The notes: generated by a model from the letters alone, not told the origin. DNA of 64,000 bases from Candidatus Scatosoma sp. (GCA_045128055.1 JBGVRC010000120.1:21133-85132), one strand, 5' to 3'. Positions 26,019 through 36,377 are shown, counted from the first letter of the stretch. Numbers and translations are program-made.

Positions 26019-26879
26019 ATGATAAAAGTAGTTGGTATTAAATTTAAAAACGGCGGGAAGCTGTATTACTTTTCGCCCAAAGCAGGGGACGTGTACGAAC
26101 GGAATATGCCCGTCGTTGTGGAAACTTCGCGCGGTTTGGAATACGCTTGGGTGGCGTATCCCGAAAAAATCGTTTCCGACGACGAAGTGGTACAACCCTT
26201 AAAGCCCGTCATTCGTATCGCCACGCAAAAGGACAAAGAATATTACGCCGCTTGCGAAGCAAAACGCCCGCAAGCTATGCAAATTTGCAGGGAAAAAATA
26301 GCGGCGCGGGGCTTGGAAATGAAGCTTGTTGACTGCGAATACGCTTTTGACGGCAGTAAGATTTCTTTCTTTTTCACGTCCGACAATCGCGTGGATTTCA
26401 GAGAGCTTGTCAAAGATTTGGCTTCCACTTTCCATTCCCGTATCGAGCTTCGCCAAGTGGGTACGCGCGACGAAACCAAGTATTTGGGCGGGCTTGCGCC
26501 CTGCGGCAGAATTTGTTGCTGCGCGGGGAATATGCCCGAATTTAAAAAGGTGAGCGTGAAGATGGCGAAAACGCAGGGTCTTTCCTTGAACCCCGGTAAA
26601 ATCAGCGGGCTTTGCGGTAGGTTGATGTGCTGTTTGAGCTATGAAAACGATTACTATGCCGAAGCCAGCAAGAAAATGCCGAAAATCGGCTCGGAAGTCA
26701 GCACGCTGGAAGGCAAGGGCATCGTCGTGTCCGTCAATATGCTGAAAATGCAGGTAAAAGTGAAGATTGACGATAGAAACGGCGACTGGATTTATAAGGA
26801 TTTCGACGTGGAAGACGTACGCTTTAAAAAGCCTATCAACAGCGACAAAGCGGACGATGACGACAAAGATGATGAATAA
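26019..26879 (+). CDS. yaaT: PSP1-domain stage 0 sporulation protein YaaT/RicT
   Basis: 286 aa; PSP1 core and Cys-rich CGRICCC / CGRLMCCL motifs. Confidence 0.9.
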   Translation: MIKVVGIKFKNGGKLYYFSPKAGDVYERNMPVVVETSRGLEYAWVAYPEKIVSDDEVVQPLKPVIRIATQKDKEYYAACEAKRPQAMQICREKIAARGLEMKLVDCEYAFDGSKISFFFTSDNRVDFRELVKDLASTFHSRIELRQVGTRDETKYLGGLAPCGRICCCAGNMPEFKKVSVKMAKTQGLSLNPGKISGLCGRLMCCLSYENDYYAEASKKMPKIGSEVSTLEGKGIVVSVNMLKMQVKVKIDDRNGDWIYKDFDVEDVRFKKPINSDKADDDDKDDE

Positions 26880-26888
26880 TAACTAAAT

Positions 26889-27067
26889 TTGCCCTTGCGG
26901 GCAAGTGAAGTTTACTTTGTAAGTGAAGTTATCCTTTGGATAGTGAAGTTTTGCCTTTGGCAAAGTAAAAAATAATTTCCATAACTTGCGCACAGCGCAA
27001 ACTTCACTTGTTTATAAACAAACTTCACTGCGTAGCAACTTCACTTTCGCGACAGCGAAAACTTCAC
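26889..27067. repeat. array of 8 distinct mini-hairpins separated by a constant heptamer (GTGAAGT x3, then ACTTCAC x4)
   Basis: Hairpins: TTGCCC/GGGCAA, TTAC/GTAA, TATCC/GGATA, TTTGCC/GGCAAA, TTGCGC/GCGCAA, TTGTTTA/TAAACAA, TGC/GCA, TTTCGC/GCGAAA. GTGAAGT at 26905, 26923, 26943; ACTTCAC at 27001, 27022, 27038, 27061. Confidence 0.9.
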
Positions 27068-27072
27068 CCTTA

Positions 27073-27129
27073 ACAAGCCACCAGGTATGCGATGAAATAG
27101 AAAAAACAGCCTTTTTAGGGCTGTTTTTT
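27073..27129. repeat. 57-nt repeat copy A (motif M12 + terminator hairpin)
   Basis: 27073-27109 is identical over 37 nt to 34796-34832, and near-identical through the CAGCC...GGCTG hairpin and T-run. Confidence 0.9.
27075..27096 (+). repeat. dispersed motif M12 (CCAGG class)
   Basis: AAGCCACCAGGTATGCGATGAA; 14/15; part of repeat copy A. Confidence 0.85.
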
Positions 27130-27816
27130 GTTTTGATCAATTATTGCCAATAAAACGGAATAAACGTCTCTATTACATTTTTCAATAGGGCTATTGTATT
27201 CATATGTAGGCTCAATAATATCGGATAAATAAATTATAACTCCGTCCACATGATGATTTGTTATTGTTTCACTGTTGGCTGTTTCCGTTGCCGTTGCTGC
27301 GCCGATAATTGCACCCGCTTCCCCAGCTATAAGCCCACCTAAAAAAGCTCTTCCTATTGCTTTATTTTTATTTGTATCGGTTTTTGTATGATGGGAAGTG
27401 GAAATTTTTAATTCCGCTTTTATAATTTTTTCAAAAGTAATAACTTTTTTTCCAAAGATTAAAAACTTATTTTTCTCATCTATAGCAACAATCCAATTTC
27501 TTTTTATATCCACCAATTCTTCGCTCTCATCATAAAAACCTATTATTTTAGATATTTTATAATTTTGATTTAACCAATTAAAATACGCTTCTTTTACTTT
27601 TTCTATCCTTTCCTTTTCTTTCTTCCTTTCTTCTTCTTTTTTCATTTTTGCTTTTTCTTCGCTTTCTTTTTCAAGCTTTAACATTTTAATAATAAAAATA
27701 ATCATAGCTATACCAAAAAGTATAACACCTATAATAGAAAGCTCTGTCATATTTACAAACATACTGGCACAAATAAATACTAATGCCAATATTATAAAAA
27801 AAATAAAAAGTTTCAT
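27115..27816 (-). CDS. hypothetical membrane protein (2 TM + charged coiled coil + Gly-zipper)
   Basis: 233 aa from MKLFIFFIIL (AGGAGC RBS); KMKKEEERKKEKERIEK; GGLIAGEAGAIIGAA; the ORF-track extension to 27918 was rejected. Confidence 0.6.
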   Translation of the reverse strand: MKLFIFFIILALVFICASMFVNMTELSIIGVILFGIAMIIFIIKMLKLEKESEEKAKMKKEEERKKEKERIEKVKEAYFNWLNQNYKISKIIGFYDESEELVDIKRNWIVAIDEKNKFLIFGKKVITFEKIIKAELKISTSHHTKTDTNKNKAIGRAFLGGLIAGEAGAIIGAATATETANSETITNHHVDGVIIYLSDIIEPTYEYNSPIEKCNRDVYSVLLAIIDQNKKQP

Positions 27817-27884
27817 AAAAGCTCCTAAAAATAAAAAAGTACGCCAACCGAAGCTGACGTACAAAAACACAGACTCCGATTGTC

Positions 27885-28025
27885 GCTCAACAAACTTTAC
27901 GTGAAATGGGTAAAACACTTACATAAAAAGAATCTGTATTTTATCAAATTCAATATGTAAGTGCGCAAAAAAGAGCTATTTTTACAAAAAAATAAACCCA
28001 AATTCACCTATTAAGTTTGTTGAGC
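27885..28025. repeat. nested inverted repeats in AT-rich spacer
   Basis: Outer GCTCAACAAACTT (27885-27897) / AAGTTTGTTGAGC (28013-28025); inner CACTTACAT (27916-27924) / ATGTAAGTG (27955-27963). Confidence 0.7.
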
Positions 28026-28071
28026 ATTATTAGTATAACACATATTCATTTTTTTATCAAGTATATTTATA

Positions 28072-28106
28072 AAAAAAGAAAAACTCCGATTTTGTCGGAG
28101 TTTTTT
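28072..28106 (-). terminator. intrinsic terminator of rsmG (bidirectional shape)
   Basis: AAACTCCGA-loop-TCGGAGTTT with A-run and T-run flanks. Confidence 0.75.
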
Positions 28107-28107
28107 G

Positions 28108-28806
28108 TTATAATATAGGATTCTTTCGTTCCTTGCCTTGTCCGCGGGGATATTTCGGGGGAGTGGGGCTCGTCTTTTTCACCACCGCCAACACCCGTTC
28201 GCCGTAGTTTTCCGGCAATTCGTATGCATACGCCTTTTCCAGCTTACCGCCCAAAACCTTATACGCCGTTTTCGCTTCGTCGATTTCCGTTTTGTCGCCG
28301 CTCTTGTACGCGATAAAGCTTCCGCCGACCTTGACAAAGGGCATACAGTATTCGCAAAGGGTGTTCATTCTCGCCACCGCGCGCGCCGTTACGCAATCGT
28401 ATTTTTCCCGAAAATTTTTATCCCGCGCCGCGTCTTCCGCGCGAATGTTATAAATATGCACGTTTTGCATATTCAACTTATCCACAACCACTTTCAAAAA
28501 CTCGCATTTTTTCCCCACGCTTTCAAAAAGATCAAAGGATAAATCGTCGCGTAAAATTTTTAAGACCATCGACGGAAAACCCGCGCCCGAGCCGATTTCC
28601 GCCACTTTCGCGTTGGTTTTAAACAAATCCATACCCGCCGCGCTGTCTAAAAAATGCTTGTACGTGACGTCTTTTTCTTCCAAAATCGCCGTCAGATTGT
28701 ATTTTTGATTGTATTCCAAGAGAAAAGCACGAAAAATTTCCAACTTTTCCCGCTTTTCTCCTAAAATCTCTTGTTCGTAAATCGCGTAAATATCTCTCAT
28801 TTCCAT
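28108..28806 (-). CDS. rsmG: 16S rRNA (guanine527-N7)-methyltransferase RsmG/GidB
   Basis: 232 aa; EIGSGAGFPS SAM loop; typical GidB length. Confidence 0.92.
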   Translation of the reverse strand: MEMRDIYAIYEQEILGEKREKLEIFRAFLLEYNQKYNLTAILEEKDVTYKHFLDSAAGMDLFKTNAKVAEIGSGAGFPSMVLKILRDDLSFDLFESVGKKCEFLKVVVDKLNMQNVHIYNIRAEDAARDKNFREKYDCVTARAVARMNTLCEYCMPFVKVGGSFIAYKSGDKTEIDEAKTAYKVLGGKLEKAYAYELPENYGERVLAVVKKTSPTPPKYPRGQGKERKNPIL

Positions 28807-28868
28807 AGCTCCTTTATTATACCACCTTTTTTATCAAATAGCAATCCTTTTTTTATACTTTTCCCCAG

Positions 28869-29123
28869 CTTTCCACAGCGGTGTAGATAGTTTTATCCAC
28901 AATGTTTATAACTGCTGTGGATTACTCAATTTTTGTATAATTATACATTTTATTTTTGTATTTTTTCCGATGAATTTTATATTTTTTCACTTTTTTATAC
29001 ACTTTTCCACAAAATTTCCACTTTTTTATCCACCTAAAAAATAGGGGTTGTCCACCGCTTGAAAAATCGCGCAAACCCTTTATATTCCAAGGAAAAATTT
29101 GGCTTTTTTAGGGGTTGTCCACA
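28869..29123. other. DnaA-box cluster 2 with AT-rich putative unwinding tract, adjacent to dnaN
   Basis: Perfect TTATCCACA at 28893; one-mismatch boxes at 28916, 29003, 29026 and 29115; AGGGGTTGTCCAC at 29043 and 29110; 75-nt AT-rich run 28925-29000. Confidence 0.7.
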
Positions 29124-29326
29124 TATCCCCACGCCCTACTACTAATACTTCTACTTTTTATTTATATAAAATATAATCAATCGACAAAAACGGACGGCTG
29201 AACAAAGAGCAAAGCTTGGAAAAATTTTTTAAATTTTCGACAAAAAAGATGACAGTAGTCCGTTGACAAAAACAAAAGCTGTGTTATAATATAACACGAA
29301 AGAAAAAACAAGGAGAAAAATGCGCT

Positions 29327-29824
29327 GTGGAACAGCTTTGTTTCGATACGATAAACGATAAAAAGCCCGCAAAAAGCTGCGTCTTTACCGGGCATAGAAT
29401 ATTAGACGACGATTTTTCTCCGCGCGCCTTAAAAAAAGAGATAAAAAACGCCGTTTTGCAAGGGGTGGAAGTCTTTTACAACGGTATGGCGATGGGGTTT
29501 GATTTGGCTGCCGCCGAAGCCGTTTTATCCCTGCGAAAAAAATTTCCGCAAATCAGGCTTGCTGCTTGCGTACCCTGCTACGGTCAGGAAAAAAACTTTT
29601 CCGATAAGGATAAAAAACGGTACGTAAATATTTTAAAAAAAGCGGATGAGAAGGTGGTTTTGTCCGAATATTATTATAAGGGTTGTATGCACGTTCGGGA
29701 TAAATATATGGTGGATTTAGGGGATATGATGATTTGCTATTGCAAAAAAGAAACGGGGGGCGCGGCGTTTACCTTGCGGTATTTCCAAAAGAAAAAGCCC
29801 ACGGCGAAAATAGTTTTTATTTAG
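29327..29824 (+). CDS. SLOG-fold DUF1273 (YpsA-like) protein
   Basis: 165 aa; FTGHR...GMAMGFDLAAAEAVL...ACVPC pattern typical of DUF1273; GTG start after AAGGAG. Confidence 0.65.
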   Translation: MEQLCFDTINDKKPAKSCVFTGHRILDDDFSPRALKKEIKNAVLQGVEVFYNGMAMGFDLAAAEAVLSLRKKFPQIRLAACVPCYGQEKNFSDKDKKRYVNILKKADEKVVLSEYYYKGCMHVRDKYMVDLGDMMICYCKKETGGAAFTLRYFQKKKPTAKIVFI

Positions 29825-29936
29825 GGAAAAATACCCGAAAATCAAGGCTTTTTTACTTGCTAAAAACTATGTTTTTATGGTATAATTTAAAGGATAAAAA
29901 TAAACGAGCTTTTTAAGCTTTTCGGAGAAGAAGAAA

Positions 29937-31043
29937 ATGAAATTTGTATGTGACGGAATGGTTCTTTCGGACGCGGCGTTTACCGTATGCAAGGCTTGCG
30001 CGGTAAAAACCATCACCCCTGTTTTGGAATGTATCAAGCTCAAAGCGGAAAACGACGGGTTGACCTTGACTGCGTACGACGGCGAAATTTCCATTAAAAA
30101 GAAAATCAACGCGGAAATTATGGAAGAAGGCGAAGTTTGCGTAAACGGCAAAACGTTTGCCGATTTCGTGGGGAAAATTTCTTCCTTTGAAGTCGTTATT
30201 CATACCGAAGAAAACGGTATGTTTATTAAATATGGCGACAGCGAATCCCGTATGCAAATTCTTCCCGCGGACGATTTTCCTCGTATCAATAAATCGTTGG
30301 ACGGCAAGGAGTATTTCGAAATCAAGGAAAGAGATTTAAAAAACTTGATTGCAAAAATCGTATTTTGTTGCGCTACGGACGAAAGCAGACCTATTTTGAA
30401 AGGCACTTTGTTGGAAGCGAAAAACGGAGCTTTGGAATGTACCGCTCTCGACGGGTTTAGAATGGCGTACGGCGCTTGCGAAACGCAGGAAACGAGCGCG
30501 GATATGAAAATCGTTTGCCCGGCAAGAACGCTTTTGGAAATTTCCCGTATGCTCGGCGATGAAGAAAATATCAAGGTTTACGCGGACAAAAATTCCCTTT
30601 CCGTTACGGTAAAGGACACCGTTATCACGTCCCGTTTGTACGCAGGCGAATTTGTAAAAAGAGAAAATATCTATCCCATCGATTTCACCACCTACGTATC
30701 GGTGAACAGAGCGGAGCTTATCGACAGCGTAGAACGCGCTTCCGTTTTGATCCGCGGGGATAAAAACAACCTTATTACCTTTGATATCAAAAACGGTAAA
30801 ATCGTATTGACGGCAAATTCGGACATGGGTAAAGTAGAAGAAAGCGTAGCGGCGAATTTGGACGGTAAGGAACTGAAAATCGCTATGAACGGCAAGTATT
30901 TGTTGGACGCGGTGAAGGCTTTGGAAGAAGACGAAGTGTTGCTTTCCTTCAATACGTCCGTATCCCCTTTCACGCTGGAAAACGCTGCGGAAAAGAAATG
31001 CAAATACTTAATTCTCCCCGTACGTACGGGCGCAGGTCAGTAA
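29937..31043 (+). CDS. dnaN: DNA polymerase III beta sliding clamp
   Basis: 368 aa, three-domain clamp length; MKFVCDG... with PILKGTLLEA, typical of DnaN. Confidence 0.95.
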   Translation: MKFVCDGMVLSDAAFTVCKACAVKTITPVLECIKLKAENDGLTLTAYDGEISIKKKINAEIMEEGEVCVNGKTFADFVGKISSFEVVIHTEENGMFIKYGDSESRMQILPADDFPRINKSLDGKEYFEIKERDLKNLIAKIVFCCATDESRPILKGTLLEAKNGALECTALDGFRMAYGACETQETSADMKIVCPARTLLEISRMLGDEENIKVYADKNSLSVTVKDTVITSRLYAGEFVKRENIYPIDFTTYVSVNRAELIDSVERASVLIRGDKNNLITFDIKNGKIVLTANSDMGKVEESVAANLDGKELKIAMNGKYLLDAVKALEEDEVLLSFNTSVSPFTLENAAEKKCKYLILPVRTGAGQ

Positions 31044-31132
31044 AAATTTATAAAAAACAGCGAAAAAGCGGAAAAAACCCGTTGAAAAACCGCAAAGAAA
31101 GGAAAAAAGACTTAAAAATTGCTTGACGGAGT

Positions 31133-31152
31133 TTGTTTGTTTGCGGTATAAT
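31133..31152 (+). promoter_or_regulatory. promoter of rpmH operon
   Basis: TTGACG, then a GTATAAT -10 box ending at 31152. Confidence 0.5.
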
Positions 31153-31229
31153 GGTGAAGTTATCGTGGGGTGAACCGCGATAAAACCAAAAATTAAGAAA
31201 AGATAAAAAACCATATTAGGAGAAAAATT

Positions 31230-31364
31230 ATGAAAAGAACCTATCAACCCAAAAAGAGACAGAGAAGCAAAGTACACGGTTTCCGTAAGAGAATGGCTAC
31301 GACCGCAGGCAGAAAGGTTTTGAAAAGACGTAGAGCAAAGGGCAGAAAGAGATTGACCCACTAA
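31230..31364 (+). CDS. rpmH: 50S ribosomal protein L34
   Basis: 44 aa [44 protein letters not shown]; AGGAG RBS; below the ORF-track size cutoff. Confidence 0.95.
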
Positions 31365-31501
31365 TTCTCAATTTCAAACGTTTTCTTAACTTATAAATGA
31401 TAATATAAAAAATCAATTCCTTTCCTTTTTTTAAAGGGGAGGATTTGCCATTTTTATACACGGAAGTATTTTGGTAGACAAAACGCTCGTTTCAAGGAAG
31501 A

Positions 31502-31819
31502 ATGAAATATTTACGATTAAAAAAACAAGCGGATTTCGAACGGCTTTTTCATAAGGGAAAGCGCGCGTTTTCCCCTTCTTTGACTCTTATTTATCGCCCG
31601 TCGGATAGTATGCGAATGGGGATTTCGATTGGTAAAAGACACGGGAAAAGCGTCAAAAGAAACCGTATCAAAAGGCTGATTAGAGAAGCTTTTGCAAAAA
31701 CGCAAGGAGAAATGAAAGGCACGTATTCTATCGTCATCATTCCCAAAGTGAACGAAACGTACGAGTACGCGACTTTTGTACGCCACTTACAATGCATGAT
31801 CAAGAAAGAAAAGCTTTAA
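31502..31819 (+). CDS. rnpA: ribonuclease P protein component
   Basis: 105 aa basic protein following rpmH; KRNRIKRLIREAF RNR-type motif. Confidence 0.9.
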   Translation: MKYLRLKKQADFERLFHKGKRAFSPSLTLIYRPSDSMRMGISIGKRHGKSVKRNRIKRLIREAFAKTQGEMKGTYSIVIIPKVNETYEYATFVRHLQCMIKKEKL

Positions 31820-31893
31820 ATTTAGACTTTCTTTCGCTGTGCAGAGCGAACAGAAAATATCTACGCAGAACGGTGTTTAAGCCGTACGTAGAG

Positions 31894-32124
31894 ATGTTTT
31901 GTTTGCGCGCGATCCGTTTTTATCAAAAGTATCTTTCCCAAGGCAAGGGCGTTTGCCGATATACCCCTACCTGCTCGCAGTATACTTTGGAGAGTATCCA
32001 TAACAACGGCGTGATTTTGGGTATTTTGTTGGGGTGTTGGCGAATTATGCGCTGTAATCCCTTATCCAAGGGTGGGTTTAATCCCGCGCCCTTTCCTTAT
32101 CACAAGAAAAAATGGCTGCTTTGA
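31894..32124 (+). CDS. yidD: membrane protein insertion efficiency factor YidD
   Basis: CRYTPTCSQYTLESI core; start placed at MFCLRAIRFYQ; upstream ORF extension uncertain. Confidence 0.75.
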   Translation: MFCLRAIRFYQKYLSQGKGVCRYTPTCSQYTLESIHNNGVILGILLGCWRIMRCNPLSKGGFNPAPFPYHKKKWLL

Positions 32125-32203
32125 TACGTTTTGTAAGATAAAAAAACGGGTATAAGCAATGTAAATAAGATTGCGGCTTTTCGCCGTATTAGTAAGGAAA
32201 ATT

Positions 32204-33721
32204 ATGAATTTTTTTAACTTGTTAGCAAACGTGCAGTTCTTTAACGAATTGCATACAATAGAGCTCGACTTCATCGGCAGATTTATCAAATGGCTGGTGG
32301 CGATTACGGGCAGCGTTGGCGTTGCTATTATTTTATTTTCGCTTGCTTTGAAGCTGGTAACTTTGCCCTTTGACGTATATCAAAGGGTTTCCATGCGCAA
32401 GCAAAATTTGAAAATGAAGCAAAACCAAGAAAGAATGGAAAAACTGCAAAAGCAGTATGCCAACGACAAAGCGACCTACAATCAAAAGGTTACGGAAATG
32501 TATAAGGAAAGCGGAATTTCGATGTTCTCTTCCTGTCTTCCCATGATTTTGTCGATGGTAATTTTCTTTATCGCAATCGGCGCGTTTAACTCTTTCGCGG
32601 CGTATTCCAACGTGAAAAATTATAACACGCTCGTCACTTCGTACAACGAAAAAATCGAAGACTTTGCTTTGGATTTAAATGATAAAGACGCAAACGGCGC
32701 GTACGTTTTAAAAGAAAACAACGTATCCTATCGTATCAGCGACGATAAGCTTTCCGTTATTTACACCGTCAAAGGGGACAGAGAAAACGATTATTTGTAT
32801 TTCGACGCGTACTATACCTTGGCGGAAGGCGAAACGGCGGACAGCTTTGTTTATGATTTTGAAAAAGCAAAAGAGCATATCGCCAACACGGGTACGACGA
32901 TTTTCTACGTGAACGAAGAAAAAATAGACGATAGTATGCTTGCGCAAATGCAAACGATTGCCGAAGCTTTGAAGCGTGAAGCGGAAGAAGAAGGCAAGAC
33001 CTTGACGGACGCGGAAGCTTTGGAAAAAGCAAAGGCGAACTATTTTGAAAGCCAAGCGCAGGACGCGGTTCTTGAAACCTATAAAACGGATTTGAAGAGC
33101 GAAACCAAATTCCTTTGGATTAAGAATATTTGGGTTACGGACGCAAGCTATAAGCACCCCGTATTGAAATATTCCGACTTTGCAAATGAAATTGTAGAAA
33201 GAAAATCCTGCTCCTGTTCGCAGGATACGAGCGTACGTAAAATTTCCGCGTACACGGAAGATGGGTATGAGCTTGTAACGGCGAAAATGGGCGCGCAAAA
33301 GAGCGAAGCGAACGGGTACTTTATCCTTATCGCCCTTTCTATCGGTACGATTTTGTTGCAACAGTTCTTGTCTATGCGTTCGCAAAAGGAACAACAAAAA
33401 TATTCGTCGGTAGACGGTCAAGGCGCGGGCAATCAAAAAATGATGCTCGTTATGATGACGGGTATGTTTGCGATTTTCTCGTTTATGTATTCGTCGGCGT
33501 TCTCTACCTATCTTATCGTCAGCAACGTATTCTCGATGGCGTCCATGTTCGTCATCAATAAAATTGTAGACTCGAAGGACAAGAAAAAGCAAGAAGCGAT
33601 CGTCATTGAAAGAAGCCAAAGCTATAACGCGAAGAGAATCGAAGCGGCGAAGGAAGCGGGCAAGAAAGCTGCGCAAGAAAAGCGCGGCATCGTGGACGAT
33701 AAATCCAAGAAGAAAAAATAA
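32204..33721 (+). CDS. yidC: YidC/Oxa1 membrane insertase, unusually long (505 aa)
   Basis: Start MNFFNLL with AAGGAAA RBS; PMILSMVIFF and later TM blocks of YidC; about 215-aa hydrophilic insert; Lys-rich tail. Confidence 0.85.
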   Translation: MNFFNLLANVQFFNELHTIELDFIGRFIKWLVAITGSVGVAIILFSLALKLVTLPFDVYQRVSMRKQNLKMKQNQERMEKLQKQYANDKATYNQKVTEMYKESGISMFSSCLPMILSMVIFFIAIGAFNSFAAYSNVKNYNTLVTSYNEKIEDFALDLNDKDANGAYVLKENNVSYRISDDKLSVIYTVKGDRENDYLYFDAYYTLAEGETADSFVYDFEKAKEHIANTGTTIFYVNEEKIDDSMLAQMQTIAEALKREAEEEGKTLTDAEALEKAKANYFESQAQDAVLETYKTDLKSETKFLWIKNIWVTDASYKHPVLKYSDFANEIVERKSCSCSQDTSVRKISAYTEDGYELVTAKMGAQKSEANGYFILIALSIGTILLQQFLSMRSQKEQQKYSSVDGQGAGNQKMMLVMMTGMFAIFSFMYSSAFSTYLIVSNVFSMASMFVINKIVDSKDKKKQEAIVIERSQSYNAKRIEAAKEAGKKAAQEKRGIVDDKSKKKK

Positions 33722-33768
33722 TAGAGAGATATGATTTTCCCAAAGTTAGGGAGCAAGGAGATTTAAAA

Positions 33769-34701
33769 ATGAACTACACGGAATTTACGGGTAAGACGGT
33801 TGACGACGCCGTCGAAAAAGGGCTGAAAGAGCTTGGTATCAGCAGAGAAAACGCGGATATCAGAGTGTTGGAAGAAGGCAAGAAAAAGTTGTTCGGTTCG
33901 GTGAAGGCTCGCGTGGAAATCGCTGTAAAATGCGAAGAAAAAGCGGAAAAATGCTGCTGTGATAAAGCGGCAAAGACGGAAAACAGCGCAAAGGACGGCG
34001 CTACGGACGGCGAAAGAACGGTGGAATTTTTGGAAGGCTTGTTTGAGCTGTTGAATATCACCGCTTGTACGGAGCTTGTTTCGGAAGGTGAAAAGGTGGA
34101 AATCAACGTTACGGCGGCGAACACCACTTCTATCATCGGTAAGCACGGCGCTATGTTGGACGCGATTCAAACGCTTGCGGGCGCGGTTGCGAACACGGGC
34201 AGGGACGAATATAAGCGCGTGGTTGTGGATTGCGAAAACTATCGCGAAAACCGTGAAGCGACCCTTAACAAATTGTCCGAAAACTTGGCGCAAAAAGCTA
34301 TTCGCTTGGGCAAGAAAATCAAGCTTGAACCCATGAACCCCTACGAAAGAAGAATTATTCACGCGGCTTTGTCGGAAAGAGAAGGCGTTTCGACGGTAAG
34401 CGAAGGCAAAGAACCTAACCGTTATATCGTGATTATTCCCGACAACGTAGGAGATCCTGACGCGCCTGCTATCCCCGCAAGAAACGAACGCGGCGGTAGA
34501 AACGGCGGCAGAAATTTCAATCGTGGCGGTAGAAACAACGGCCGCGGCGGGTATAACAGAAACGGTGGTAAGAGCTTTGATAAAAAGCCTTATAACCGTG
34601 ATAGAAAATCGTCTTCGAGCTCTTCGACGGGCGGTACGACGTTGAAGCCGAATAATGATTTCTTTGGTATTTTCCTTGGAAACAGCAACAAAGACGAATA
34701 A
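33769..34701 (+). CDS. jag: Jag/KhpB RNA-binding protein (Jag_N, KH, R3H) with RGG-rich tail
   Basis: 310 aa; IIGKHGAMLDAIQ KH motif, ERRIIHAAL R3H motif; tail RGGRNGGRNFNRGGRNNGRGGYNRNGG. Confidence 0.85.
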   Translation: MNYTEFTGKTVDDAVEKGLKELGISRENADIRVLEEGKKKLFGSVKARVEIAVKCEEKAEKCCCDKAAKTENSAKDGATDGERTVEFLEGLFELLNITACTELVSEGEKVEINVTAANTTSIIGKHGAMLDAIQTLAGAVANTGRDEYKRVVVDCENYRENREATLNKLSENLAQKAIRLGKKIKLEPMNPYERRIIHAALSEREGVSTVSEGKEPNRYIVIIPDNVGDPDAPAIPARNERGGRNGGRNFNRGGRNNGRGGYNRNGGKSFDKKPYNRDRKSSSSSSTGGTTLKPNNDFFGIFLGNSNKDE

Positions 34702-34702
34702 T

Positions 34703-34731
34703 AAAAAGAGCCCTTTTCGGGGCTCTTTTTT
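34703..34731 (+). terminator. intrinsic terminator of jag
   Basis: GAGCCC-loop-GGGCTC followed by T6. Confidence 0.8.
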
Positions 34732-34795
34732 GCAAGGTAATAAGTAAAAGTGAAAAGTGAAAAAGTGTGGCTGGAATTTAGGAAAAATTGATATT

Positions 34796-34853
34796 ACAAG
34801 CCACCAGGTATGCGATGAAATAGAAAAAACAGTCTTTTTTAAGGCTGTTTTTT
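34796..34853. repeat. 57-nt repeat copy B (motif M13 + terminator hairpin)
   Basis: See copy A; 34796-34832 is identical to 27073-27109. Confidence 0.9.
34798..34819 (+). repeat. dispersed motif M13 (CCAGG class)
   Basis: Identical to M12; part of repeat copy B. Confidence 0.85.
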
Positions 34854-35112
34854 TAGTTTGTTTTTAAGTTTAATATTTCCATCAAAGCCTGCGCGCCCGT
34901 TTGAAAACTCAAAACGTAGAACTCTTTTTCTTCTTCTACATATCTTTTGTTTTTTAAATCGTCAAATCGCAACAAAAGATTTTTTTGCTCGTCCGTCAAG
35001 TTTTTTTTAATTCTTCGTTAATTGTAATTTTTTCCTTGCTTACCTTTGTTTCGTTATTATTTATCGGTTTTTCTATGGCTTCATAAAACAACTTTTCTAT
35101 AATCGACTGCAT
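34853..35112 (-). pseudogene. small helical protein gene interrupted at an A8 tract (frameshift or slippage)
   Basis: MQSIIEKLFYEAIEKPINNNETKVSKEKITINEELKK then TGA; the -1 frame continues NLTDEQKNLLLRFDDLKNKRYVEEEKEFYVLSFQTGAQALMEILNLKTN; T8 on the + strand at 35000-35007. Confidence 0.5.
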
Positions 35113-35134
35113 AAAACACCTTTTTTATTTTATT

Positions 35135-35170
35135 GGCTCTGTCACATCAACCATTTTCCGTGACACAGCC
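35135..35170. promoter_or_regulatory. inverted repeat in divergent control region
   Basis: GGCTCTGTCAC ... GTGACACAGCC (one mismatch). Confidence 0.5.
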
Positions 35171-35182
35171 ATTTTTATTATA

Positions 35183-35200
35183 ATAGCAATATATTGCTAT
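35183..35200. promoter_or_regulatory. 18-bp perfect palindrome, candidate XRE operator 1
   Basis: ATAGCAATATATTGCTAT. Confidence 0.6.
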
Positions 35201-35212
35201 GTCAAGCGTTTA

Positions 35213-35230
35213 ATAGCAAAATTTTGCTAT
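35213..35230. promoter_or_regulatory. 18-bp perfect palindrome, candidate XRE operator 2
   Basis: ATAGCAAAATTTTGCTAT, overlapping a TATAAT-like box. Confidence 0.6.
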
Positions 35231-35261: not shown

Positions 35262-35474
35262 ATGTACGGAAATAATATAAAAACGGCAAGATTAAACGCG
35301 GGGTTGACGCAAAAAGAAGTATCTGCAAAAACGGGAATCCCACAAAATACGATTTCTTGGATAGAGTTAGACAAAGGATTAGCCAACATAGAACAATGCA
35401 GATTGTTGGCGGAGTGTTACAATATTACGATAAACGAATTGATAGGAATAGAACCTAAAAAAGAATGGAAATAA
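35262..35474 (+). CDS. XRE-family helix-turn-helix regulator
   Basis: 70 aa; LTQKEVSAKTGIPQNTISWIE HTH. Confidence 0.85.
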   Translation: MYGNNIKTARLNAGLTQKEVSAKTGIPQNTISWIELDKGLANIEQCRLLAECYNITINELIGIEPKKEWK

Positions 35475-35477
35475 AAG

Positions 35478-35508
35478 AAAAACAGCCTTTTTTAAGGCTG
35501 TTTTTGCA
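35478..35508 (+). terminator. intrinsic terminator (third copy of CAGCC...GGCTG hairpin)
   Basis: AAAAACAGCCTTTTTTAAGGCTGTTTTT. Confidence 0.75.
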
Positions 35509-35561
35509 AGATGATCTTGCAGTCAATCTTACGGCAAGATGATCTTGCAGCCAGACTTACG
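35506..35561. repeat. 2 x 28-bp tandem repeat, each starting with a 15-bp palindrome
   Basis: GCAAGATGATCTTGCAG+TCAATCTTACG / GCAAGATGATCTTGCAG+CCAGACTTACG, followed by partial TCTTGCAAACG. Confidence 0.85.
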
Positions 35562-35627
35562 TCTTGCAAACGTTCTTTAAGTTTATAAACGACTGTATAA
35601 ATTTCGTACTTTCTATAAGAATAAAAA

Positions 35628-35656
35628 TTAAAGCACAGGATTTCCTGTGCTTTTTA
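35628..35656. terminator. bidirectional terminator
   Basis: AGCACAGG-loop-CCTGTGCT with A-rich and T-rich flanks. Confidence 0.65.
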
Positions 35657-35678: not shown

Positions 35679-36377
35679 TTAGTCAGTAACTTCTTCCGTT
35701 GAAGTAATCGGCGTTTTCTTGAAAAGACAAGGCATTACGATGCACGTGCAAACTAAGTATCCTATAAGACAAATATATGCCAAAATACCGCACGTATCAA
35801 TCAATCCAAACCAGAATTTTAAAGCCTTTCCGTTTTTAGCAATAGCCTTGAAGATGGAAATGAAAATCCAGAAAACGATGGGCGCAAATTCGAAAATAAG
35901 CGTAGGAATAAAGAAATTCTTTGCCGTTTTTTCTTCGGGGGATAATTTCCAAGTCGTTTCTTCTTCAAACGTAGCCGTGTTTATCCAAGGTTGGAATTTG
36001 ATGCCGCCAAACGTGCTGATATAGAACGTGATTTGCAGGTTGAACCATTGGAAATAGAAGAAGAAGCTGAAAAATGCAATCAGTATTCTTAAAAAGAAGA
36101 TAAAGGACGTCGTGCAGAATAAAACAACGGCTTTCGGAGCAGGGTGCATATCCTTGGTACGTTCTTTTTCCCAAGATTCCAAATACGAACAAGGCGAAAG
36201 GAGCGCGTTATAGAAGAACAACGCTACGTAGTAGCCTACAACGCCAAAAAATGCGAACACGTAGAAAGGAATCATGCAAACGATGGCAAAAATCTTTAAA
36301 AGAAGGTTTAAGCGTTTGTACTGAATACCCTTTTTCGCTTCTGCCAACAAAGAGCCGATAAGTTTTTGATAATCCAT
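35679..36377 (-). CDS. hypothetical polytopic membrane protein
   Basis: 232 aa from MDYQKLIGSL (AAGGAG RBS; TTGACA / TGgTATAAT promoter upstream); ORF-track extension rejected. Confidence 0.6.
   Translation of the reverse strand: MDYQKLIGSLLAEAKKGIQYKRLNLLLKIFAIVCMIPFYVFAFFGVVGYYVALFFYNALLSPCSYLESWEKERTKDMHPAPKAVVLFCTTSFIFFLRILIAFFSFFFYFQWFNLQITFYISTFGGIKFQPWINTATFEEETTWKLSPEEKTAKNFFIPTLIFEFAPIVFWIFISIFKAIAKNGKALKFWFGLIDTCGILAYICLIGYLVCTCIVMPCLFKKTPITSTEEVTD

Follow-up and report, generated by a model that had tools for sequence, protein, structure and literature searches.

Why should an identical 37-nt sequence mark the left edge of two blocks of low guanine-plus-cytosine (GC) content, one on either side of a bacterial replication origin? 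Here, we address this question in a 64,000-nt stretch of Candidatus Scatosoma sp. (GCA_045128055.1 JBGVRC010000120.1:21133-85132), referred to below as the window, which is part of a 2.07-Mb metagenome-assembled genome of 183 contigs. An earlier sequence-only reading of the window had proposed that both blocks are insertions from the same source or, alternatively, that the repeat is a preferred integration point. Our comparison with contigs of the same species from other samples instead favors the repeat being the common end-piece of small gene cassettes at two swap sites, whose contents turn over by ordinary recombination; we give this explanation a probability of about 0.75.

The 37-mer ACAAGCCACCAGGTATGCGATGAAATAGAAAAAACAG has two exact matches in the window, both on the plus strand with 0 mismatches. 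Each runs into a hairpin, and a third copy of the hairpin stands to the right of copy B:

27073..27109, plus strand: copy A, a dispersed-motif copy (AAGCCAC-CAGGTATGCGATGAA) followed by an A-run
27101..27129, both strands: hairpin A, CAGCC-TTTTTAG-GGCTG, found by terminator scan at -12.7 and -15.1 kcal/mol
34796..34832, plus strand: copy B, a dispersed-motif copy followed by an A-run
34823..34854, scan match on the plus strand: hairpin B, CAGTCTT-TTTT-AAGGCTG, the left boundary of a DUF6809-XRE cassette
35478..35505, scan match on the minus strand: hp3, the third hairpin copy, the right boundary of that cassette

No third copy of the 37-mer was found in the window at up to 3 mismatches, and the expected count was 0 in 100 dinucleotide-preserving shuffles. 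The alignment of copies A and B starts sharply at ACAAG, runs through the hairpin and the T-run with 2 substitutions and 1 indel (55/58, ~95%), and then ends, in agreement with the 37-nt identity and ~57-nt similarity that had been described. We refer to the longer sequence as the unit. A search of the whole genome, suggested in the sequence-only reading as a check, returned these two copies only; at up to 3 mismatches, the unit was not found in 123 other species of the genus, and an exact 28-mer of it had no match outside the source genome in public metagenome and genome contig collections.

The unit is a composite. A copy of a genus-wide dispersed motif makes up its first 28 nt, and an A-run, the hairpin and the T-run follow; the motif core and the terminator scan thus bear out the earlier description of each copy as a motif joined to a terminator. 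The third hairpin was also correctly placed, and it matches the site-B hairpin at 27/28 positions. All three hairpins are predicted intrinsic terminators by sequence, each a G+C-containing stem-loop followed by a U-run and placed 3′ of a gene, with RNA folds of -8.5 to -16 kcal/mol and z-scores of -3.7 to -6.3 against shuffled controls. As an intrinsic terminator working in both directions, the unit hairpin would serve the minus-strand gene to its right. The unit does not resemble a transposon or a miniature inverted-repeat transposable element, as the copies have no terminal inverted repeats and no target-site duplication around them: the flanks share no duplication (CCCTTA...GTTTTG at A vs GATATT...AGTTTG at B), and the sole inverted repeat is the terminator stem. 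A striking exact repeat beside low-GC DNA need not, then, be a transposon end.

The two copies lie in direct orientation on either side of the origin block (oriC, dnaN, yidC), and the cumulative GC skew has its minimum at ~29 kb of the window. The gene order of the region is as follows:

Left part: holB; PSP1/ricT (26019-26879); a Gut-1 hairpin array; copy A; gene A (minus strand)
Middle: rsmG, ypsA, dnaN, rnpA, yidD, yidC, jag (33769-34701)
Right part: copy B; two short minus-strand open reading frames (ORFs); an XRE regulator; the membrane-protein gene B3; clpX; clpP

We define site A as the interval between PSP1 and rsmG, and site B as the interval between jag and clpX. The drop in GC noted earlier to the right of both copies is real, as the sequence has 28% GC right of copy A and 31-36% right of copy B, compared with 45-49% in the flanking genes.

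Repeats longer than an assembler's k-mer break metagenome contigs at such sites, or can mis-join them, and the present genome is a fragmented assembly in which short-k contigs of the same sample do break at the repeat. However, independent contigs of the same sample cover all four arms and a single linear order is possible; the alternative joining of the arms would turn the segment from gene A to jag into a circle. The repeat arrangement is therefore not an assembly artefact. Other samples agree, as contig L029 has units at both sites on one independent contig, and L077, also one independent contig, places a gene A homologue between PSP1 and rsmG. We consider the chance that a mis-join created the two copies to be next to negligible.

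Conspecific contigs from other samples were retrieved by an identical PSP1 protein and then by neighbouring proteins, and L029 shows 96-99% nucleotide identity over 20 kb. The alleles were read from a handful of short metagenome contigs. Site A, which is flanked by PSP1 and rsmG in L019-L025 and L077, has four alleles among them, plus a variant in L077:

Empty allele (L020): Gut-1...ACAAGCCACCA joined directly to TATTGTAT-terminator-rsmG
Cassette allele (L019/L029): unit, DUF6809 gene (86 aa, minus strand), divergent XRE gene (71 aa)
Partial view (L022, L024, L025): unit and DUF6809 gene up to the contig end
XRE-only allele (L021, L023): unit and XRE gene with DUF6809 deleted, then a partial Gut-1 copy, ACAAGCCACCA-TATTGTAT and a second terminator
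Gene A allele (source genome): unit, then gene A
Variant (L077, 95.6% identity in the flank): PSP1, R2 element, terminator, gene A homologue, IS3; no motif

Site B, flanked by jag and clpX in L029 and by the flank sequences of both sides in L040 and L043, has three:

Cassette without B3 (L029)
Cassette with B3 (source genome)
B3 without cassette (L040, L043), exactly one hairpin kept

These patterns confirm that both copies stand at the left edge of DNA found in some strains of the species and absent from others, and the comparison with close relatives that the sequence-only reading had called for also supplied an empty site A (L020) and breakpoints. Other species were less useful as empty-site references: their PSP1-rsmG intervals were uninformative and hold unrelated genes (a two-gene pair in 4 species, other genes in 2), and jag and clpX were not adjacent wherever both lay on one contig. 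In the source genome, site B contains the following features:

34853..35112, minus strand: DUF6809 gene, frameshifted into 38 + 48 aa; site-A-type sequence
35133..35171, no strand: palindromic insertion of 39 nt, GGCTCTGTCAC...GTGACACAGCC, in the divergent promoter region
35183..35230, no strand: two palindromic operator-like sites, ATAGCAAwATwTTGCTAT, within the divergent promoters
35262..35474, plus strand: helix-turn-helix regulator of the XRE family (70 aa); L029 has a 100% identical gene at site B
35679..36377, minus strand: B3, a multi-pass membrane protein of 232 aa that matches no family

We propose that the unit would be the 3′ end of a two-gene cassette, a minus-strand DUF6809 gene and a divergent gene for an XRE repressor, which occupies both sites. 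This proposal bears directly on chance or convergence, according to which two independent motif copies simply came to lie beside similar terminators. The motif is indeed abundant (322 core matches and 160 strict matches in the source genome), and an unrelated terminator lies within 60 nt after 14/160 strict copies (~9%) compared with 2.75% of random windows, so that a motif followed by a terminator is a recurring layout. Against these figures, among ~51,000 in-register motif pairs of the genome, paralogous genes aside, the A/B pair has the longest exact run, at 37 nt vs 31 nt or less in every other pair, and the shuffles predict none. Moreover, in other strains the similarity at both sites reaches ~340 nt into the DUF6809 gene, and the paralogous cassettes of L029 refute independent origins; we find coincidence hardly credible.

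The DUF6809 proteins have a marginal match to one phage family of unknown function, and the XRE proteins match generic regulators. Other strains have an intact 86-aa gene; compared with it, the source genome is one C short at 34994-35008, which accounts for the frameshift. The missing C precedes a T8 run, and an assembly error at this homopolymer is thus possible; L029 and L022 have neither the frameshift nor the palindrome. The palindrome at 35133-35171 lies within a 44-column insertion, and the other three aligned cassette sequences lack these 44 columns. We also asked if the motif is an intrinsic part of DUF6809 cassettes, and rejected this, since it follows the stop codon in 1/22 distant homologues from other species.

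How, then, does the same unit come to stand beside a different gene at site A of the source genome? The features to the right of copy A are:

27115..27816, minus strand: gene A, a 233-aa membrane, coiled-coil, Gly-zipper protein; 28% GC
27817..28060, minus strand: promoter (TTGATA-17-TATACT at 28060-28032) and ~200-nt structured leader, part of the gene A module
28079..28105, minus strand: hairpin T′, CTCCG-ACAAAAT-CGGAG on the minus strand, the terminator after rsmG

Gene A was found in the source strain's sample only, with variants in L077 and L105, and the only matches of its protein are to phage families without a known function; assignments of the module genes to defence or phage families were accordingly rejected. 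From window position 27096 (AATAGAAAAAACA) onward, the sequence is homologous to the gene A module of L077, including the hairpin loop and everything to the right, while to the left of 27096 it follows the unit of L021-L024. Copy A is thus chimeric, with a resident motif joined to gene A's own terminator, and the changeover from resident unit to gene A module falls at ~27096-27125. The motif part of copy A is identical to the site-A units of L021-L024, from strains with DUF6809 and/or its XRE gene, and by this identity is probably a remnant of a resident DUF6809-type unit.

At the other end of the module, T′ lies the other way round from its counterpart in all other strains (an inverted high-scoring segment pair at 28116-28074) and has the orientation seen beside the gene A variant of L105, where the context is different. 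T′ marks the right end of the gene A module. With its palindromic stem, it presents one and the same short homology whichever way round it lies. Terminator hairpins also vary more widely among strains (compared with L019-L025), by flipped loops or by inversion of the whole hairpin. The unit hairpin loop is TTTT in some alleles and AAAA in others, and the rsmG terminator has ACAAAAT vs ATTTTGT. Such small inversions at palindromic terminators coincide with module junctions.

These results also speak to the proposal that one donor or mobile element, ending in the 57-nt unit, brought both low-GC blocks. Both blocks do start at the unit and are poor in GC, and the terminators of gene A, DUF6809 and XRE have a common A-run-CAKCC-loop-GGMTG design. 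However, the three modules (gene A, the DUF6809-XRE cassette and B3) segregate separately across strains. The earlier 'insertion B' resolves into two separate modules, and B3 is strain-variable in its own right, missing from L029 but carried by 12 contigs from other samples. In addition, the gene A homologues of L077 and L105 have no motif on their left, the unit stays at site B in strains without the cassette, and its 28-mer was absent from the public contigs searched outside the source genome. A same source for both insertions, which the sequence-only reading had offered as one of two possibilities, is therefore abandoned here as very improbable.

A second line of evidence came from the sequences of the cassettes themselves. 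In L029, the units of the two sites differ, the site-A unit being ACAACTCACCAAGTACGCGTTGAA..., whereas the site-A units of L021-L024 agree with the site-B unit over their first 40 nt. Copy B itself is unchanged across all 5 conspecific contigs that cover it. We aligned the source site-B cassette to the two cassettes of L029 and scored it at the positions where the A and B types of L029 differ. The unit was B-type at 15/15 positions, the DUF6809 gene A-type at 19/19, and the promoter with the start of XRE B-type at 29/32, a mosaic that corresponds to a conversion tract of ~190-330 nt. In other samples, the exact site-A-type DUF6809 protein is found nowhere but next to PSP1. An A-type DUF6809 tract within a site-B cassette indicates probable gene conversion between the sites.

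The cassette is absent in L040 and L043, where the unit hairpin runs directly into the sequence that follows hp3 in the source genome. From this junction, with one hairpin left, it follows that the DUF6809-XRE cassette is bounded by two copies of a 28-nt hairpin. The absence of the cassette is what recombination or slippage between the bounding hairpins would leave.

From these alleles, their breakpoints and the mosaic, we infer a series of events carried by general recombination or slippage without a dedicated enzyme. First, gene conversion would have copied site-A-type DUF6809 sequence into site B. Second, the body of the site-A cassette would have been replaced by a low-GC module made up of terminator, gene A, structured leader, promoter and upstream terminator, with the left crossover in the shared ATAGAAAAAACA/hairpin region and the right crossover in the palindromic terminator; the resident motif would survive this replacement as the 37-nt identity. 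Third, the membrane-gene module B3 would have come to sit right of the site-B cassette. Some strains would have lost the site-B cassette via recombination or replication slippage between its bounding hairpins, leaving a single unit. Throughout, exchange would proceed through the conserved flanks together with short homologies in the hairpins and A-runs. Deleting the segment between the two units would cost the cell oriC as well as dnaN, rnpA and yidC, essential genes among them, so that conversion would be the one survivable outcome; this may explain why the repeat persists and why conversion is the only pattern seen between the sites.

Several observations weigh against this account. A handful of metagenome contigs does not reveal the direction and order of the events, and the crossover homologies of ~12-37 nt are low for RecA-dependent exchange unless the conserved flanking genes gave the real homology. 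The empty site-A allele breaks in the middle of a motif (CCACCA/GGTA), at the centre of the CC-A-GG core, and no microhomology was found that would explain a break at this position. In L021 and L023 (L021:3287-3870, L023:3122-3710), the right half of the Gut-1 array is duplicated on the far side of the cassette; owing to this second partial Gut-1 copy and the ACAAGCCACCA after the cassette, the insert is flanked by a ~140-nt direct repeat, which also fits integration of a circular intermediate. Finally, the flipped hairpin loops between alleles (TTTT vs AAAA) hint at hairpin-specific processes. The Gut-1 central spacer of the empty allele (L020) resembles the second copy of L021/L023, and together these Gut-1 patterns suggest deletion or integration through Gut-1 homology.

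Some of these observations also speak for an alternative in which a recombinase encoded elsewhere in the genome would use the motif and/or the hairpin for attachment. It could be a tyrosine recombinase or a hairpin-processing HUH enzyme, on the model of integrons or REP/RAYT systems, and the cassettes would leave as circles and re-enter at these sites. The break at the core centre of the empty site-A allele, the single hairpin kept by the cassette-free site-B allele, the long direct repeat around the L021/L023 cassette (as after circle integration via Gut-1 homology), the flipped loops and the coincidence of hairpins with module boundaries at every junction seen would all find a place in it, and 11 tyrosine recombinases, along with 2 Y1 transposase matches, were counted in the genome. 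However, the source genome has no recombinase gene in or beside either site, and the low-GC islands of contig C93 in which the full-length Y1 transposase gene lies have no motif copy within 400 nt. Only two fixed sites hold the cassette, and 6 other motif copies in the 20 kb shared with L029 are positionally conserved without indels. Furthermore, the cassettes have promoters of their own and are mixed in orientation, which sets them apart from those of integrons, and homologous exchange with deletion between repeats can yield all observed alleles. Overall, we regard a dedicated attachment site as unlikely. We are similarly doubtful of its broader form, in which the motif and hairpins would be sites of a trans-acting, genus-specific cassette shuffling, integron-like with no linked integrase; there, hairpins and the motif dyad centre would be the points of cutting and rejoining for small promoter-bearing modules, possibly as circles with Gut-1 homology.

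The sequence-only reading had stated that no integrase or transposase is present in either insertion, and this held: in the source genome, gene A, DUF6809, XRE and B3, the four genes of the two low-GC blocks, gave no match to recombinase families. An IS3 element does stand beside gene A in L077 (L077:1438-2660; orfA + orfB, rve domain), between the gene A promoter and a partial Gut-1 array. The second possibility of the sequence-only reading, a preferred integration point, survives in a local sense only. Exchange recurs immediately to the right of the unit, as the four alleles of site A and the three of site B show, but the unit is not a general integration site.

Turnover by ordinary recombination at two fixed sites brings to mind the minimal mobile elements described in Neisseria (Saunders & Snyder 2002; Snyder et al. 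2007), for which we follow the definition in PMC3787668. These elements have conserved flanking genes with different content between them in the closest relatives. Sites A and B behave similarly. Their flanks are constant, their contents are strain-variable, with modules of 28-36% GC set against flanks of 45-49%, and they have no mobility genes of their own in the source genome; as in Neisseria, homologous recombination best explains the exchange and the borders are rich in repeats. The transformation and homologous recombination through the flanks that belong to the neisserial definition would here be deduced from the mosaic alleles. The present host differs in being an uncultured gut Firmicute-like genome. 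Its two sites also carry a paralogous cassette and exchange sequence with each other, and the junctions lie at terminator hairpins and not in flanking genes.

Other systems resemble parts of the arrangement. As with integron attC cassettes, small gene units are bounded by hairpin-forming sequences and contain no recombinase. Unlike in integrons, there is no intI gene in or beside either site, no canonical attC R″/L″/L′/R′ layout was identified, and the modules have consensus promoters and regulators, one of them with operator-like sites, and lie on both strands at two sites only. The cassette-free allele of site B is akin to a slippage deletion or a solo long terminal repeat remnant, since the cassette between two 28-nt hairpins is missing in some strains and one hybrid copy is left; the deletion mechanism is here conjectural, and insertion with duplication of the hairpin would be the alternative. 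The motif itself recalls REP/BIME and the neisserial NIME/dRS3 repeats, being a short, dispersed and partly palindromic sequence with hundreds of copies and a genus-wide spread, joined in spacers with Gut-1 arrays, GTGAA repeats, GCAAG hairpins and R2 elements, and located at rearrangement breakpoints; its sequence is unrelated to theirs. We looked for a RAYT-like Y1 gene flanked by the motif and found none, as the genome has 2 Y1_Tnp matches and the full-length one is more than 400 nt from a motif copy.

The locus thus offers a base-level worked example of accessory-gene turnover in an uncultured gut bacterium, in which two hypervariable sites flank the replication origin, modules would be exchanged at terminator hairpins, and the sites would homogenise each other by conversion.

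The leader RNA upstream of gene A may be a more novel object in this region than the repeat. It ends in a conserved terminator-like hairpin (27862-27839), with the Shine-Dalgarno sequence and start codon of gene A directly after. The leader was found in 73/124 species of the genus, in 1-6 copies each, with 2 copies in the source genome, and it precedes unrelated genes. RNAalifold predicted 32 pairs, 8 of them with compensatory changes, and more covarying helices were visible by eye; no family of Rfam 15 matched. We therefore put the leader forward as a candidate new cis-regulatory RNA travelling with accessory genes. Its helices are nested, with an outer helix GCUCAACAAACUU/AAGUUUGUUGAGC and an inner variable helix with the conserved loop UGAAUUUGAUAAAAUGCAGAUUC, which pairs with GGAGUCUGYGUUUU. 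The other copies are located as follows:

L077:2765-2988
L078:1212-1446
L079:1240-1486
L080:1172-1399
L081-L085
Source genome (G000), contig C86:3261-3500

The dispersed motif has the core CAGGTAYGCGWTGAA, with a variable G-run or an xxACC pentamer 5′ of it, and is partly palindromic, with a CGTACC-W-GGTACG subclass. It was found in 22/24 sampled species of the genus and in 0/16 genomes from other families of the order. We considered the motif as a general marker of low-GC DNA and rejected this, as 3/139 copies have a low-GC flank, which equals the 2.2% background, and most of the 147 low-GC islands have neither the motif nor companion repeats nearby. The sequence-only reading had held that a repeat occurring widely with no associated low-GC DNA would speak against it; the motif class does behave in this way, whereas the 57-nt unit, confined to two sites, does not. 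The motif's ATG/TTG was likewise rejected as a gene start in general, since only 41/159 start-like copies open an ORF of at least 60 aa. One other strict copy in the genome, at G000 C20 ~5185 (minus strand), is the only further one with a terminator and then DNA of less than 36% GC downstream. Around the motif, A/T is enriched with a period of ~10-11 nt for 30-45 nt on either side (peaks at ~-30, -20, -12, +20, +32 and +44), which may point to phased A-tracts, as in curved DNA or with a wrapped protein.

Several other repeats share these spacers:

26880..27067, no strand: Gut-1 type array of mini-hairpins spaced by GTGAAGT / ACTTCAC, left of copy A
34737..34782, plus strand: (GTAA/GTGAA)n-TGGCTGGAATTTAGG element after the jag terminator, from a dispersed family
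35506..35653, no strand: spacer repeats, namely two GCAAGATGATCTTGC hairpins, the dispersed element R2 (CCAGACTTACG...CGACTGTATAA) and the B3 terminator

GTGAA-rich repeats do lie left of both copies, as had been noted earlier, but they are not a constant partner of the motif: such neighbours occur at just 4-5/159 motif copies, and the two belong to separate repeat families found in the same spacers. The left array is of the Gut-1 type, with an Rfam RF01706 match at 26880-26954 (59.9 bits), whereas the (GTAA/GTGAA)n family is distinct from it and also occurs in other species at 88-94% identity.

The second family is part of a composite dispersed repeat, in which (GTAA/GTGAA)n-TGGCTGG is followed by GCAAGnnnnnCTTGCAG hairpins and then by R2 (CAGnCTTACG...TTTAAG...CGACTGT). 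Loci of this composite include window positions 35506-35627, G000 contigs C82, C75, C51, C101, C153, C7, C42 and others, and L077 beside PSP1; in other species, it runs on into arrays of unrelated mini-hairpins. R2 is found 3′ of two genes, B3 in the source genome and gene A in L077, where the R2-like element lies to the left of the gene.

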